NCBI GenBank assembly: GCA_023411215.1
Contig: JAEYOY010000038.1
Location: 1 to 64,000 of the forward strand
DNA length: 64,000 nt
Origin: Bacillota bacterium
Lineage (GTDB): Bacteria; Bacillota; Clostridia; Lachnospirales; Lachnospiraceae
Direction of reading: 5' to 3'
Made by a program: the position numbers and the translations under genes. The notes under the pieces are model-generated. The model was not told where the DNA came from. It made no database searches and was given only the letters and a program-made list of their open reading frames with translations. Positions 20,984 through 27,468 of this stretch are shown here, piece by piece; within the stretch, counting starts at the first letter, position 1, and every line of letters begins with the position of its first letter.

Positions 20984-23623
20984 CTATGCCTTCTGTAGCT
21001 TTCGTTGTATTGCTTTCACAATCTCTACAATCGGAATAACACTGACAGCTAACAGCATTGCGATTCCATATTCCTCTAAGCTGATATGCTCAAATTCGAA
21101 GATGTTACTGAGGAAAGGAATATATATTACCGCCGTGGTCAGAATCAAGCTCATGGCAGCGGCTCCGATCAGTACCACATTCTGAGTATTCATACGAAAA
21201 ATTGATCCACGCTGACTTCTCATATTAAAACTATGGAATATCTCAGCCATACTCATAGTTAAAAAGGCCATCGTCATACCATCTGGACTGTTTACAAATT
21301 CCCATCTACCGGATTCAATATAATGACCGAGTAAATAAGCCAATAAGGTTACGACTGTTACCATTGCCCCCTGATACGCAACATCAATTCCGACACCACC
21401 GGAGAAAATCCCATCCTTAGAGGAGCGAGGCTTACGCTGCATCAGATCCTTCTCACCCTGCTCCATACCAAGTGCCAATGCCGGGAAGCAGTCTGTGATC
21501 AGGTTAATCCATAAGATATGCACGGGTTTCATGATAGTAAAGCCCAACAAGGTAGCAGTAAAGATGGATAATACCTCACTTAAGTTGGAGGATAAGAGGA
21601 ACTGTATCGCTTTACGGATATTGTCGTAAATTCGTCGTCCTTCTCCTACAGCTGATACAATGGTAGCAAAATTATCGTCGGCCAGTACCATGTCTGCAAC
21701 ATTCTTTGTTACGTCAGTACCTGTGATACCCATACCGACACCGATATCAGCACTCTTGATGGAAGGTGCATCATTTACTCCATCACCGGTCATAGCGGTG
21801 ATCATACCCTTCTTCTTCCAGGCTGTTACGATACGTACTTTATGCTCCGGTTGAACACGGGCATAGACGCCATAATTCTCGATGGTAGCCTGAAGCTCTT
21901 CGTCAGAGATCTCATTCAGCTGTGCTCCAGTTATGGCTTGCATCGGATCTTGAATAATACCAATCTGTGTTGCAATTGCAATGGCCGTATCTCTATGATC
22001 TCCCGTAATCATAACAGGACGGATACCTGCACTGCGACATTCCTTTATCGCTTCGATAACCTCTGGACGTACCGGATCAATCATACCGGTTAAACCGATG
22101 AATATAAGTTCCTTCTCCAAGAACTCAGGAGTGTACTCCGTCGGTGCTGTCTCATAGGTACGGTAGGCTGCTGCCAGGACGCGAAGTGCTTTGTCTGCCA
22201 TTCGTTTGTTTTCTTTTAATATCTCCTGACGCTTCTTCTCTGTCATAGGAAGGACTGTACCATTCTCTATGTAGAAAGTACATACGCGGAGTACTTCATC
22301 GGGAGCACCCTTTGTAAATTGTACAATACCTGAATTGTCATGTACGGTAGACATCATCTTTCGAACAGAATCAAAGGGAGCCTCTCCGATACGAGGAAAT
22401 ACTTTCTTCAATTCCGGCTTCAAGAGCGACAGCGTAGCCGCATAATTAACCAAAGCACATTCGGTGGGTTCACCGATTGCAGATCCATTCTCCAGCTCAG
22501 CATCACAACAGAGTGCCATTGCTCTACCAAGCAATTCCTCATCAGAGGTAAAATGATCAACTACAGTCATCTTATTCTGTGTCAGAGTTCCGGTCTTATC
22601 ACTACAGATAATCTGGGTACAGCCTAAGGTCTCAACTGCTGTTAATCGGCGAATTACTGCATTACGCTTACTCATATTCGTAACACCGATGGATAGAACG
22701 ATAGTTACAACAGCTGCCAGACCCTCAGGAATAGCGGCTACCGCTAGACTTACTGCCACCATGAAGGTATCAAGGACAACTGTTCCGTTCAAATCACCGG
22801 ATCGGAGCAGGCTGAATGCAAAGATGAATACACAGATACCAATTACAAGAACGGTAAGAATCTTACTTAATTGGTTTAATTTAATTTGAAGAGGAGTCTC
22901 GCCTTCTTCTGTTTTCGTGATGGCATCTGCAATCTTTCCCATCTCAGTGTCCATGCCGGTAGCGACAACAACAGCGCGCCCACGTCCATATACCACTGTA
23001 CTTCCCATGTAAGCCATGTTCTTCCGATCACCCAGGGGTATCTCCTTCTCTTCCTTTTTCAGAGATAGGATATCAATGATTTTATTTACAGGAACGGATT
23101 CACCGGTTAACGCAGCTTCTTCGATCTTCAAGCTGGCGCTTTCTAAGATTCTGCAATCAGCTGGAACAGAATCTCCTGCTTCCAGAAGAACCATATCACC
23201 AACAACCAGTTCCTCACTTTTTACACTTACAATAGTCCCGTCGCGAAGCACCTTACTCGTAGCTGCTGCCATCTCCTGTAGGGCTTCTATTGCCTTCTCA
23301 GCTTTATTTTCCTGATATACACCAAGCACGGCATTAATGATTACTACAATCAAAATGATGAAAACATCCGCAATAGACTCTCCGGCATAGATACTGGTTG
23401 CACCCGATATTGCTGCTGCCACGAGCAGTATTATAATCATAGGATCGGTAAGCTGGGATAAAAATCGTTTAAGCAGGCCATCCTTCTTACCCTCTACCAG
23501 TTTGTTCTTACCATTCTTCTCCAATCTTTCTTTGGCCTCAGAGGCGGTAAGCCCCTCTGCTTTACTTCCTACTACTTTTAACACATTTTCTTCTTGCTCA
23601 AGATAAAACTTCATTCGCGACAA
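20984..23623 (-). CDS. P-type cation-transporting ATPase (P2-type, Ca2+/Mn2+-ATPase family)
   Basis: DKTGTLT phosphorylation motif (CSDKTGTLTQN), TGDGVNDAPS hinge motif, 10 TM helices. The likely true start is the ATG 3 codons into the ORF, with an aaggaaggga RBS. Confidence 0.9.
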   Translation of the reverse strand: MSRMKFYLEQEENVLKVVGSKAEGLTASEAKERLEKNGKNKLVEGKKDGLLKRFLSQLTDPMIIILLVAAAISGATSIYAGESIADVFIILIVVIINAVLGVYQENKAEKAIEALQEMAAATSKVLRDGTIVSVKSEELVVGDMVLLEAGDSVPADCRILESASLKIEEAALTGESVPVNKIIDILSLKKEEKEIPLGDRKNMAYMGSTVVYGRGRAVVVATGMDTEMGKIADAITKTEEGETPLQIKLNQLSKILTVLVIGICVFIFAFSLLRSGDLNGTVVLDTFMVAVSLAVAAIPEGLAAVVTIVLSIGVTNMSKRNAVIRRLTAVETLGCTQIICSDKTGTLTQNKMTVVDHFTSDEELLGRAMALCCDAELENGSAIGEPTECALVNYAATLSLLKPELKKVFPRIGEAPFDSVRKMMSTVHDNSGIVQFTKGAPDEVLRVCTFYIENGTVLPMTEKKRQEILKENKRMADKALRVLAAAYRTYETAPTEYTPEFLEKELIFIGLTGMIDPVRPEVIEAIKECRSAGIRPVMITGDHRDTAIAIATQIGIIQDPMQAITGAQLNEISDEELQATIENYGVYARVQPEHKVRIVTAWKKKGMITAMTGDGVNDAPSIKSADIGVGMGITGTDVTKNVADMVLADDNFATIVSAVGEGRRIYDNIRKAIQFLLSSNLSEVLSIFTATLLGFTIMKPVHILWINLITDCFPALALGMEQGEKDLMQRKPRSSKDGIFSGGVGIDVAYQGAMVTVVTLLAYLLGHYIESGRWEFVNSPDGMTMAFLTMSMAEIFHSFNMRSQRGSIFRMNTQNVVLIGAAAMSLILTTAVIYIPFLSNIFEFEHISLEEYGIAMLLAVSVIPIVEIVKAIQRKLQKA

Positions 23624-23806: not shown

Positions 23807-23950
23807 ACAAAAAAGACTCAAGTAAATCCTATTCAAATTGAATAAGAAATACATGAGTCTTGTTCTTTCCGGATAAGCCAGACAGTTACGTCTTGTTGTT
23901 GACTTAGCCACGCAATATGGTGCGCGAACTACTCCCCCACGGTTCATAAA
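23807..23950 (-). ncRNA. putative yybP-ykoY (Mn2+) riboswitch with terminator expression platform
   Basis: Minus-strand ...ccgugGGGGAGUAGuucgcgcaccauauugcguggcuaagucaacaaCAAGACg... carries the hallmark GGGGAGUAG and CAAGAC elements. It is followed by the hairpin caagacucaug...cuugagucuu plus a U6 run, ~190 nt upstream of the ATPase start. Confidence 0.5.
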
Positions 23951-24132
23951 CATTTTATGCTTTTCTAGATGATCACATCTTTATCTTCTACAGTGCTTTT
24001 AATAATAGCACAATTAAGAAGAATAATCAATGGGAATTTGCTGGGAGTGTTTTTCGCTGTAACATTCTTGGCTCGACTACTTACAGCAATCCCTGTAATA
24101 GGATACCCTTTTGTTGAAATAACTTCATATCC

Positions 24133-25325: not shown

Positions 25326-25622
25326 TCACTCTGATCGGTTACTTTTTATGATGTCATAGCCTAAAAGCTGTATTAACTTTAGCGCTTCCATCGAGGTTCT
25401 ACGGTCAAGCTCCTTCTCAGCTTCGGGTAGCTCATCATAGGATACTAAATTCGGATGCCGTTTTAAGCGGTCATTTCTTTTAGGGCCATAACTCCATCCA
25501 TTCTTCAATCTCTCTTCTGCCCAATTTTCATGGGTATTCTTTGCCAGTGTCTCTGCTATTTTTAATAGGTTATGATCTATTGCAACCTTGCTTGTATCGA
25601 TTGGATTTGGAATATATTTCAT
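25326..25622 (-). CDS. standalone RyR (ryanodine-receptor) domain protein
   Basis: 98 aa. HENWAEERLKNGWSYGPKRNDRLKRHPNLVSYDELPEAEKELDRRT closely matches the bacterial RyR-domain consensus (NWA...GW.YG...D...HP.LVPYEELPE.EKE.DR). Confidence 0.7.
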   Translation of the reverse strand: MKYIPNPIDTSKVAIDHNLLKIAETLAKNTHENWAEERLKNGWSYGPKRNDRLKRHPNLVSYDELPEAEKELDRRTSMEALKLIQLLGYDIIKSNRSE

Positions 25623-25635
25623 AGGTTAACCTCTT

Positions 25636-27468
25636 TTATAAATCACTTTTTGTTATACCATAACCTGAGGAAGATAAAATCAATCCAAGATTCTGTATCA
25701 GGAACTGGTCTGCTTTTTTATAATCTTTATTGAATACAGAACTTACATGATCAAGCTCATCCCATTCAACCAAACAACTATGTAATTTTAGGACTTCATC
25801 CTTGTTTTTTTCCTTCCCTTGAATATCAGTCATGGTTCTCCATCCATTTACAAAATGGTATGCATTCCATCTCATATGCTCTCCCTTTGATAACTGATCA
25901 AAGATAACATTATCTTTCAAAAGATTTTCATAGATTGTCGTTTTAGATCCTTTTTCATAACTGAGTCCAACGGAATTTAGCTTGGACTGGAAATGTAAAG
26001 CCAACGCTCTATTTGACTGCTTTTCAAAAAGGCTGATCTCCTCCCAAGTCCTAGTACTTTTATATACCGAATTATAAAAATCATGACATTGTTTCGCTAG
26101 ATGATCCAACTCTTCATTTATAATATTATTCTCTGTAAACAAATTATTTGATGACCCAAACCATATAACGTTACTAAGCAAGGTTGTTTTAAATAGTACT
26201 TTATATTTCTCATAATCTTTCACATATGCACATATCCTGGCTTTTGCCTTACTATGAATACATAGCCGGCTAACCTCGGATGCAGTCTCTACATCATCAT
26301 TAGCAATTATGATACAATTCAGATCAGGGAGATACCCCTTAAGCTTAATATAATATTGTTCTGTATCAAGCTTTGCATCAACAAACTCAAATGATGCGCA
26401 CTTCTCAACTTCCGGATTTTTTTGAAAAAAGGAAGCGGTTTTATCCCTGATCTCTTGTTCAACCAGAACTAACTTTAATTTAATGCCATCACATTGACCC
26501 AAAATGATAATATTTCTATATAGATCTTCACATATCTCTGAAAAACCGATGATGCATACCGTTAGTACCTCCTTCTTATCAAGTGTACTAACAAGCGTAA
26601 ATTGATCAAACAGCTGTCGGGAGATCAGATTATTCAAATCTATGATATGAATATCCAGTTGTGAAAAATCATCCCTAGAAAATACATCCTCACAAATATT
26701 ATGATCGGTGAAAACATACAGACTAACATCCTTATTCTTTTTTTTATTCTTTTTGTAACTTTCAGCATATTGATCAGTAAAAGTTATATTATCATAAATA
26801 TCTTCATTGATTGCAAAAATAAACGTCTTGTATTTTACAAATCTTAAACAAATGTTAATGATATCGTCAAGACTATATATCATGTATATAATATGTCCAT
26901 ATTTTGAAGCTTCTATTTCAAGCCTTATACTCTCATCCGAGTCACTTTTATTATCAACACTAAGGATTATGATGCTGTCTTTATTTTGCTTTTTAATATC
27001 ATTTGCTAGAGCTAAACTGTTTTTATTCAGCGCTGTAAAAATGTATACTTTCTTATTCCGAGTAAAACACCGGATAAACTTCAACTGAATCTTGCTCATT
27101 ACCCGATAACCTAACAGGGATAATATGATCATTCCGGTTACCAGCAGGGAAAAGGTCATGATAAGACCAAAAAAAATATTATACAGAGGCATGTTAGTAA
27201 CATTTGTTTCAAAAGAGGAAATATCATTTTCTAATACAAACATTCTTCCCGTACTGAAAATTGCCATTAATCCAGATGATATATAATCAAGAGGGCCCTG
27301 GCTTTTTGTGAGATATCCAATGGTATAGATACATATACCCAATATAATAAATGCAGATAGTATTTTTAATCGATGCTTTGCAAACCAGGTCTGATACCGA
27401 GATATTATAAATACTCCAAAAAATATTAATAGAATATCAAAAATGATAATTATGATTTGAACTAGCAT
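25636..27468 (-). CDS. membrane protein with degenerate RCK/TrkA-like middle region and C-terminal RyR domain
   Basis: 610 aa, 4 N-terminal TM helices. The C-terminal ~90 aa (EHMRWNAYHFVNGW...LHSCLVEWDELDHV) is RyR-like. The gene is very AT-rich. Confidence 0.55.
   Translation of the reverse strand: MLVQIIIIIFDILLIFFGVFIISRYQTWFAKHRLKILSAFIILGICIYTIGYLTKSQGPLDYISSGLMAIFSTGRMFVLENDISSFETNVTNMPLYNIFFGLIMTFSLLVTGMIILSLLGYRVMSKIQLKFIRCFTRNKKVYIFTALNKNSLALANDIKKQNKDSIIILSVDNKSDSDESIRLEIEASKYGHIIYMIYSLDDIINICLRFVKYKTFIFAINEDIYDNITFTDQYAESYKKNKKKNKDVSLYVFTDHNICEDVFSRDDFSQLDIHIIDLNNLISRQLFDQFTLVSTLDKKEVLTVCIIGFSEICEDLYRNIIILGQCDGIKLKLVLVEQEIRDKTASFFQKNPEVEKCASFEFVDAKLDTEQYYIKLKGYLPDLNCIIIANDDVETASEVSRLCIHSKAKARICAYVKDYEKYKVLFKTTLLSNVIWFGSSNNLFTENNIINEELDHLAKQCHDFYNSVYKSTRTWEEISLFEKQSNRALALHFQSKLNSVGLSYEKGSKTTIYENLLKDNVIFDQLSKGEHMRWNAYHFVNGWRTMTDIQGKEKNKDEVLKLHSCLVEWDELDHVSSVFNKDYKKADQFLIQNLGLILSSSGYGITKSDL

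Follow-up and report, generated by a model that had tools for sequence, protein, structure and literature searches.

A P4-less three-way-junction leader of the yybP-ykoY (Mn2+) class, probably a transcriptional ON riboswitch, upstream of a P2-type ATPase gene in a Clostridia genome

Organization of the locus

The DNA analyzed here, referred to below as the window, is a stretch of 64,000 nucleotides from a Bacillota bacterium. The locus under study lies on its minus strand, and all features described in this report are on that strand, so that their coordinates descend in the direction of transcription. The order of elements is a promoter, a leader that contains an aptamer, an intrinsic terminator, a spacer of approximately 190 nt, a ribosome-binding site (RBS), and the gene for a P2A-type cation ATPase. 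The promoter (TTGATT-17-TGcTATTAT, 24030-24002) is of the sigma-70 type with a TG extended −10 element and was located by a consensus scan; transcription would be expected to start near position 23996. The same scan revealed no second promoter-like site on the minus strand between this promoter and the start codon. The spacer (23808-23615) is non-conserved and unstructured, with a fold z-score of +0.32, and carries at its 3′ end the RBS AAAGGAAGGGA (23635-23625). When the spacer was checked for a second structured element or promoter with Rfam, with the covariance model R1 described below, by consensus scan, by folding, and by comparison with relatives, none was found.

The ATPase had been described in the original prediction as a protein of 879 amino acids. 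The open reading frame of that length does exist and begins at TTG 23623, but the ATG at 23614 is the likelier start because of the conserved N-terminus MKFYLEQE and the spacing to the RBS. The gene then extends from 23614 to 20984 and encodes 876 amino acids, which NCBIfam and Pfam assign to the P2A-type cation ATPases. Neighboring RyR-domain and orphan open reading frames were considered as further members of the system and rejected, as they are syntenic in no relative.

With respect to the ATPase, the closest relatives are Bacillota metagenome-assembled genomes (92% and 91% identity), followed by Anaerotaenia torta (85%). Similarity to the closest relatives starts at the promoter (24030-24002). 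Among the five closest relatives, the conserved parts are exactly the promoter, a short stretch of 5′ leader, aptamer, terminator, and RBS; apart from the RBS, the spacer varies in both sequence and length. As a separate observation, the terminator is situated approximately 190 nt upstream of the start codon, and a promoter below the sensitivity of the consensus scan could bypass the switch.

Anatomy of the aptamer

The aptamer is a P4-less three-way junction of the yybP-ykoY (Mn2+) class that spans 90 nt (23941-23852) and is closed by helix P1.1. Position i of the alignment corresponds to window coordinate 23944 − i. P1.1, the switch helix, is formed by the 5′ strand CGUGGG (23941-23936) and the 3′ strand CUCAUG (23857-23852). 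Two of its six pairs are G-U, and it is 94-96% paired across relatives, with compensatory changes. The 5′ strand of L1, GGAGUA (23935-23930), follows, and GGGAGUA (23936-23930) is invariant in all 56 aligned leaders. As judged by sequence, geometry aside, G23935, G23934, and A23933 are the equivalents of G8, G9, and A10 in the Lactococcus lactis RNA, for which roles have been described and of which A10 is the adenosine that makes an A-minor contact (PMC6649816, PMC6754395). P1.2 pairs GUUC (23929-23926) with GAAC (23865-23862). Its strands take the forms GUU/AAC, GUCA/UGAC, GCAA/UUGC, and GCGA/UCGC across the leaders, with compensatory changes in four of four pairs in the orthologue set and in three of four in the metagenome set. 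The P2 hairpin, GCGCA-CCAUAU-UGCGU (23925-23910), shows compensatory changes in six of its seven model pairs and was recovered de novo by RNAalifold.

The 5′ strand of P3.1, GGCUAAG (23909-23903), pairs with CUUAUCC (23877-23871) with one C·U mismatch. Immediately above L3, P3.1 is closed by the pair G23903-C23877; of the leaders compared, 48 of 56 in the orthologue set and 82 of 82 in the metagenome set have G-C here. By analogy with the structure described in PMC6754395, this pair is a candidate for the A-minor receptor. If the S. pneumoniae numbering is followed, the receptor may be the pair next to it, which is A-U here. L3 (UCAACAACA, 23902-23894) begins with UCAACA (23902-23897), within which CAACA is invariant in 56 of 56 leaders and C23901 and A23900 are the equivalents of C40 and A41 in L. 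lactis. A41 is the invariable L3 adenosine whose N7 contacts Mn2+, and the L3 of L. lactis reads UCA41AU (PMC6754395, PMC6649816). The P3.2 hairpin, AGAC-GUAACU-GUCU (23893-23880), covaries in all five model pairs, and its stem is GGCC.../...GGUC in most relatives. A conserved GG (23879-23878) lies 3′ of P3.2, with UGG kept in 55-56 of the 56 leaders.

In place of P4, the junction is spanned by the single-stranded linker GGAAA (23870-23866), five unpaired nucleotides that lead from the 3′ strand of P3.1 to the 3′ strand of P1.2. The family consensus at this site is U-[U/G]-A-A-A, with position 1 being U in 46, G in 8, and A in 2 of the 56 leaders. The linker of the window agrees with UNAAA at four of five positions and has G at position 1, as have seven other leaders with aptamers that are otherwise intact. 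The 3′ strand of L1, A-AGA (23861-23858), completes the aptamer. Its AGA is invariant together with the following C (23857), and the base 5′ of AGA is variable (A in 24, C in 16, and G in 16 leaders). The window carries all the elements that are invariant in 56 of 56 leaders, namely GGGAGUA, CAACA, the U-G of UGG, and AGAC, and these invariant nucleotides are the L1 and L3 pocket residues known from crystal structures and mutagenesis (PMC6649816, PMC6754395).

All the sequence features on which the original prediction was based are present on the minus strand at the coordinates given here, and two of them call for comment. The motif GGGGAGUAG occurs at 23937-23929 and nowhere else in the window. 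Alone, it is weak evidence, with 0.26 copies expected by chance and at least one copy in 23 of 100 shuffled sequences, and a full-text literature search for it returned nothing relevant. The composite GGGAGUAG...UCAACA...CUGGCUU, on the other hand, occurs once in the window and in 0 of 100 shuffles. The second feature, GUCAACAACAAGAC (23903-23890), had been taken as a whole for a conserved strand of the aptamer. This is correct for GUCAACA, the conserved strand of L3, but not for the CAAGAC that follows, which supplies the 5′ side of the P3.2 stem (AGAC/GUCU) and is replaced by CAUGGCC in most relatives. L1 has its true 3′ strand (A-AGA followed by C) in a second ACAAGAC (23863-23857), which had been counted only as an arm of the terminator.

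Comparative and covariation evidence

A genome scan based on the ATPase yielded 80 orthologous loci from Clostridia. In approximately 70 of the 80, GGGAGTA is found 5′ of the start codon, usually 140-230 nt away, and approximately 70 of the 80 orthologous ATPase genes carry a leader of the yybP-ykoY type, with 56 leaders being P4-less and 13 having a four-way junction or lacking P2. Canonical four-way junctions ending ...UAGCAAGACC are found in a minority (loci L014, L022, L059, and L061, among others), and L075 is without P2. In the four-way-junction relatives L014, L028, and L037, a hairpin stands at exactly the position of the window's linker. In the majority of the leaders, including that of the window, P3.1 leads on to the 3′ strand of P1.2 with no hairpin in between.

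The covariance model R1 was built from 54 P4-less orthologous leaders, which were aligned with MAFFT and onto which the proposed structure was written. It finds a single match in the window, at 23943-23850 on the minus strand, with a score of 73.5 bits and an E value of about 1e-14; the range for the family, over 56 loci, is 58-93 bits. When the model was applied to 11 leaders of other forms (ten with a P4 hairpin plus L075), scores of 18-38 bits were obtained, and these link the P4-less form to the others.

After realignment of the 56 orthologous leaders with R1, 93% of the cells are paired and compensatory changes are present in 23 of the 28 pairs. The covariation score of this orthologue set is 0.53, compared to 0.22 for shuffled alignments, none of which reached 0.53 in 500 trials, and 0.05-0.12 when the partners were slid. 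As the realigned set is fitted to the proposed structure, two independent checks were performed. First, RNAalifold applied to the unfitted MAFFT alignment recovered P1.1, P1.2, and the cores of P2 and P3.2, with compensatory changes in 12 of 15 pairs. Second, 100 metagenomic copies that were outside the model building are 92.6% paired, with compensatory changes in 20 of 28 pairs and a score of 0.43 versus 0.20. The MAFFT alignment shifts window-like rows by one column in P3.1 and was used for seeding and for RNAalifold, not for pair counts. Collectively, helices P1.1, P1.2, P2, P3.1, and P3.2 are backed by compensatory changes in two independent sets of sequences, in keeping with the class architecture of two legs (P1.1-P1.2 and P3.1-P3.2) that meet at a junction of several helices. 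Nearest-neighbor folding of the isolated aptamer favors another fold (−23.2 kcal/mol, compared to −18.0 kcal/mol for the three-way junction), in which P1.1 and P2 are kept.

Terminator and switch mechanism

The intrinsic terminator (23861-23809) consists of an outer stem, AAGACUCA/UGAGUCUU extended by GUA/UAC, an inner stem, UCUUAUUCA/UGAAUAGGA, and a run of six U residues (U6, 23814-23809). The hairpin that had been recognized at first sight, caagacucaug (23862-23852) with cuugagucuu (23822-23813) followed by U6, belongs to this structure. The 5′ arm of the terminator (23861-23850) overlaps the 3′ strands of both L1 and P1.1, and nucleotides 23861-23852 can pair either with 23941-23936 or with 23824-23813. 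The original prediction had suggested a terminator platform that works in the ON direction and had proposed RNA folding of the aptamer against the terminator as a check. The layout is borne out: the 3′ strand of P1.1 is common to the aptamer and the terminator, and the alternative pairing is plainly present. The structure of minimum free energy for the full leader is the terminator conformer, at −45.2 kcal/mol, compared to −30.0 kcal/mol for the best structure in which P1.1 and P1.2 are enforced. From this folding model, the default state of the leader would be termination, and stabilization of P1.1 by the ligand would lead to read-through. The overlap of terminator and P1.1 is conserved. It was detected in 45 of the 56 loci by an automatic criterion and in six more by eye, which brings the count to at least 51 of 56, and the remaining five loci show a two-hairpin relay with the same logic.

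These features suggest the following sequence of events. Transcription would begin at the promoter at 24030-24002. As the aptamer emerges, L1 (GGAGUA / AAGA) would dock with L3 (UCAACA...) and the two would hold a divalent metal ion, with Mn2+ as the most likely one, and this docking would stabilize P1.1 (23941-36 paired with 23857-52). The 3′ strands of P1.1 and L1 (23861-23852) would double as the 5′ arm of the terminator. With metal bound, formation of the terminator would thereby be blocked and the polymerase would read into the pump gene; with metal absent, the much more stable terminator would form and transcription would stop. The pump would then export the excess metal, presumably Mn2+ and possibly also Ca2+. 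A mechanism of this type, in which P1.1 and the terminator compete, has been shown for the L. lactis member of the class (PMC11087558).

Performance of the Rfam model

The family model of Rfam, RF00080, gave no match on the whole window at the gathering threshold, nor on 600 nt of the leader region or the 106-nt aptamer alone at E ≤ 10. According to the original prediction, the riboswitch assignment was to be given up if a score below the gathering threshold coincided with the lack of any alternative pairing between the aptamer and the terminator. The score does fall below the threshold of 45 bits, while the alternative pairing exists, and the rule needed both.

RF00080 (Rfam 15) has 177 positions, includes no closing pairs of P1 in its structure line, and devotes about half its length to P4. 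Even on a textbook four-way-junction leader of this clade (L014), it scores only 16.4 bits against the gathering value of 45. It found nothing on the best relative (L013) and nothing at the gathering threshold on 16 related loci. On 19 further P4-less copies, it gave at most 24.3 bits and never reached the threshold. In that run, RF00080 was the only riboswitch family to touch the aptamers, with three local matches to P3/L3 (E values of 0.01-0.07), and the controls (tRNA, L10 leader, and Clostridiales-1) passed their thresholds. The failure of RF00080 on the window is therefore uninformative, because the model is insensitive to known relatives in the clade. It reflects how a single search model behaves and does not bear on any biological trait by which the class is defined. 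Other Rfam matches that appeared under permissive settings (mir-7910, SpF19, bglG leader, sroD, and RAGATH-26) were rejected as chance-level hairpins far below threshold.

These results have a practical side. As run here, RF00080 misses the P4-less form in the window, in six orthologous leaders, and in the 19 metagenomic copies tested. With model R1, 56 orthologous copies came to light, and with a simple pattern at least 120 in metagenomes; RF00080 found none of those tested. Where annotation depends on RF00080, Mn2+ riboswitches of gut Firmicutes, chiefly the ones before mntP, will be under-annotated, and a dedicated sub-model would mend this blind spot.

The pump and the gene context of the P4-less form

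The closest relative of the ATPase with a solved structure is LMCA1 of Listeria (E ~1e-204), and 589 relatives of the ATPase were confirmed in species-representative genomes. The protein keeps every side-chain ligand of Ca2+ sites I and II of SERCA: the E of PEGL, the N and E of M5, the N, T, and D of M6, and the E of M8. In SERCA1a numbering, which agrees with the chain positions in the alignment of the pump with SERCA1a, these are E309 (PEGL), N768, E771, N796, T799, D800, and E908. LMCA1 differs at three of these positions, where it has A, N, and R. The ligands of the pump fit a site of the Ca2+ type, which, as read from the protein sequence, is compatible with either Ca2+ or Mn2+. By analogy and from the gene context, the pump probably exports Mn2+. 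An ATPase of this kind would be automatically annotated as a Ca2+ pump, and Mn2+ (or Mn2+/Ca2+) detoxification is the more likely role, here and in many gut Clostridia.

Since the first loci had all been found via the ATPase, metagenomes were scanned for a DNA pattern that singles out the P4-less form. At least 120 contigs were retrieved, and each of the 100 matches tested with the model was full length, with scores of 52-92 bits. The first downstream gene was counted for the 107 loci with a callable open reading frame among the matches listed. MntP-like genes account for 73 of the 107, P2-type ATPase genes for 12-13, ABC transporter ATPase genes for six, CDF transporter genes for five, and genes of the Ca2+/Na+ antiporter family for four; the others, again among the matches listed, are a pair and six singletons. 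The P4-less form is common in gut Firmicutes, mainly on recognized families of Mn2+ exporters, and no claim of rarity is made for it. The occurrence of MntP-like, CDF, and P-type ATPase genes downstream supports Mn2+ as the ligand.

Interpretation and alternative explanations

Taken together, the results suggest that the ATPase leader acts as an ON switch at the level of transcription and represents the P4-less three-way-junction form of the yybP-ykoY (Mn2+) riboswitch class, a reading to which we assign a probability of roughly 85%. It is built on conserved nucleotides, covarying helices, mutually exclusive pairing, linkage to the pump, and linkage of this aptamer form to families of Mn2+ exporters; what we infer is which metal is the ligand, that the leader actually switches, and what the pump transports. 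The class to which the leader had originally been assigned is supported by the invariant L1 and L3 nucleotides, the helices supported by covariation, and the 3′ strand of P1.1 that is shared with the terminator.

The alternative that survives best concerns the metal rather than the RNA fold. The leader could be a physiological sensor of Ca2+, or of both Ca2+ and Mn2+, for a genuine Ca2+ pump rather than a Mn2+ exporter. The pump does keep all the ligands of the SERCA Ca2+ sites, its closest solved relative is the Ca2+-ATPase LMCA1, and four of the P4-less metagenomic copies among the matches listed precede genes of the Ca2+/Na+ antiporter family. The mgtA riboswitch of Streptococcus pneumoniae lies before the gene of a PII-type ATPase, which reduces the Mn content of the cell and is also able to efflux Ca, and its aptamer binds Ca2+ more tightly than Mn2+ (PMC6649816). 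However, Mn2+ is far better than Ca2+ as an activator of read-through in vitro, and only Mn stress induces mgtA in vivo (PMC6649816). Furthermore, the soft-ligand adenosine of L3 is kept here, and about two-thirds of the P4-less copies among the matches listed precede MntP-like Mn2+ exporters. On balance, we consider it unlikely that this leader serves a true Ca2+ pump in such a way. For the clostridial pump-coupled P4-less aptamers in general, Ca2+ sensing is compatible with the evidence because these aptamers have the same core as the S. pneumoniae RNA, to which Ca2+ binds more tightly than Mn2+ in vitro, and a physiological role as a Ca2+ or dual Ca2+/Mn2+ sensor seems quite improbable. If true, it would make this aptamer the first natural Ca2+-responsive riboswitch.

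It is very unlikely that the element is a decayed or bypassed relic and that the ATPase is expressed from a promoter of its own in the 190-nt spacer. The spacer is unusually long and variable among close relatives, and the linker departs from the consensus at one position, as might be expected of such a relic. However, every invariant position and every helix is intact, 73.5 bits is a mid-range score for the family, and in the five closest relatives hardly anything has changed in the aptamer and terminator, in contrast to the diverging flanks. The lack of any promoter-like site in the spacer in the consensus scan also argues against this possibility.

A stand-alone small RNA gene unrelated to the ATPase, made up of a promoter, approximately 185 nt, and a terminator, would likewise be bracketed as this short transcript is, and the S. 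pneumoniae counterpart was in fact first catalogued as an sRNA, SN44 (PMC6649816). Such a gene would not be expected to keep its position and orientation before the same gene in approximately 70 of 80 genomes, and a terminator arm that overlaps the closing helix is characteristic of a cis-acting switch. An accumulating terminated leader is, moreover, the expected OFF-state product of a riboswitch, and we regard the small RNA explanation as highly improbable.

Finally, a leader-peptide attenuator that acts through the ATG-initiated 58-codon open reading frame spanning the element (23953-23777) is almost certainly wrong and was rejected, as the frame is unconserved (it has no Met in L002, is reduced to 22 codons in L005, and is frameshifted elsewhere by changes in loop length) and the substitutions follow compensatory base-pairing rather than a codon-like pattern.

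Comparison with known systems

The comparison with solved members of the class rests on features and short sequences quoted in the respective papers. Compared to other members, the riboswitch upstream of S. pneumoniae mgtA is the parallel proposed in the original prediction, and the window matches it feature by feature, except for the first base of the linker and the long spacer. The mgtA RNA belongs to the yybP-ykoY family and forms a three-way junction, with UNAAA (N being U or G) standing in for P4, a linker reported to be invariant among streptococci. Its AGA, which comes after a variable base, is invariant, as is the C-A of L3, and a terminator follows (PMC6649816). Its architecture, the kind of pump, and the ON logic have been shown experimentally (PMC6649816). 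Several features are shared by mgtA and the window. First, both have a three-way junction with a five-nucleotide single strand ending in AAA in the place of P4. Second, both carry GGA in L1, C-A in L3, and N-AGA on the 3′ side of L1. Third, the terminator is built on the 3′ strand of P1.1, which gives an ON arrangement, and the downstream gene encodes a PII/P2-type ATPase of the LMCA1 kind. The two differ in the linker (GGAAA in the window and U[U/G]AAA in mgtA), in the base before AGA (A in the window and G in streptococci), and in the position of the terminator, which is approximately 190 nt from the start codon in the window whereas that of mgtA adjoins the RBS. The hosts are also different, in that the window comes from a Lachnospiraceae-like member of the Clostridia.

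The yoaB riboswitch of L. lactis, the crystal structure of which defines the class (cited in PMC6649816, PMC6754395, and PMC11087558), shares with the window the pocket nucleotides of L1 and L3, the UCAA of L3, and the competition between P1.1 and the terminator. It likewise controls a P-type ATPase, which has been implicated in Mn2+ tolerance. However, yoaB has a four-way junction with both P2 and P4, whereas the window is without P4.

The alx and mntP elements of E. coli belong to the same family and have the same metal-sensing core as the window (PMC12153347). The alx element lacks P2 rather than P4 and shows that three-way-junction versions can be functional (PMC12153347). In E. coli, both elements regulate translation instead of relying on a simple terminator such as that found in the window, and their downstream genes code for TerC-family and MntP proteins, compared to the P-type ATPase of the window (PMC12153347). 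In C. difficile, the leader of CD2503 has been annotated as a predicted Mn2+ riboswitch before a cation-translocating P-type ATPase (PMC11477304), and this annotation resembles the window in its context.

The element of the window belongs to a subtype that has already been described, and there is nothing new in kind about it. For a Mn2+ riboswitch that turns on a metal-efflux pump, there are precedents in Lactococcus, Streptococcus, and Clostridioides, and the three-way-junction form of the aptamer was characterized in 2019.

Detection and diversity of the P4-less aptamer

When the Rfam 15 model of the yybP-ykoY riboswitch (RF00080, "Manganese") was searched against window positions 23845-23950 and against L013, L014, and L081-L117, it missed every P4-less Mn2+ riboswitch in the test set, namely, the window element, six orthologues, and 19 metagenomic copies. 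Approximately half of the 177 positions of this model are taken up by P4, its structure line lacks the closing pairs of P1, and even a canonical four-way-junction leader scores just 16.4 bits. Annotation based on RF00080 will therefore miss the P4-less subtype.

Other junction forms occupy the orthologous position upstream of related ATPase genes. A P4 hairpin is inserted exactly at the UNAAA linker, the single-stranded segment that stands in place of P4, in two loci (L028:3782-3898 and L037:3808-3930), a third has P4 and lacks P2 (L075:1184-1267), and in a fourth P3.2 is extended by an insert of some 50 nt (L070:3788-3932). Gain or loss of aptamer helices seems to have happened more than once in the lineage of this one gene.

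Genomic context

In one ATPase locus (L040:3196-3288), the aptamer is separated from the ATPase start downstream by about 800 nt, compared to the usual 140-230 nt, and the gap may hold a long leader or an additional short gene. In at least four P4-less metagenomic copies (contigs L129, L131, and L167), the first gene after the aptamer encodes a member of the calcium/sodium antiporter family (TIGR00367 at 222.6 bits, exceeding the cutoff). Mn2+ riboswitches are not usually paired with such a gene, which is a further tie of the P4-less form to Ca2+-type transporters.

Upstream of the ATPase gene in the window, a stand-alone bacterial RyR-domain protein of 98 amino acids (25326-25622, minus strand; Pfam PF02026, E = 1e-32) adjoins a 610-aa open reading frame (25636-27468, minus strand) that matches nothing in Pfam or NCBIfam. 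Both are absent from the surroundings of the ATPase gene in all 80 related loci, so the pair has the look of an insertion, specific to this lineage, that separates the dehydrogenase gene from the neighbors upstream of it.

Expression platform

Downstream of the aptamer in five Lachnospiraceae/Acetatifactor-like loci (L062, L065, L066, L073, and L074), the hairpin that sequesters the 3′ strand of the closing helix P1.1 has no U-run and is followed by a second hairpin that carries one, the 5′ arm of which approximately repeats the P1.1 3′ strand (GACUCAAGUAUAG). This platform looks like a three-hairpin relay in which the ON logic would be kept, and L057, L060, and L077 probably share this arrangement. 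At the site of competition with P1.1, the stem of the window terminator contains a U.U mismatch (23853/23821, minus strand) in place of the A-U pair of the five closest relatives (CAUG/CAUG) and is slightly weaker for it.

Metal sites of the ATPase

Every side chain that serves as a Ca2+ ligand at sites I and II of SERCA1a is retained in the pump (20984-23614, minus strand), within the motifs PEGL (M4), SSNLSEV (M5), INLITD (M6), and MAEIF (M8). Three of these positions are A, N, and R in its closest solved relative, the Listeria Ca2+-ATPase LMCA1, and the pump may therefore differ from LMCA1 in being a two-site enzyme.
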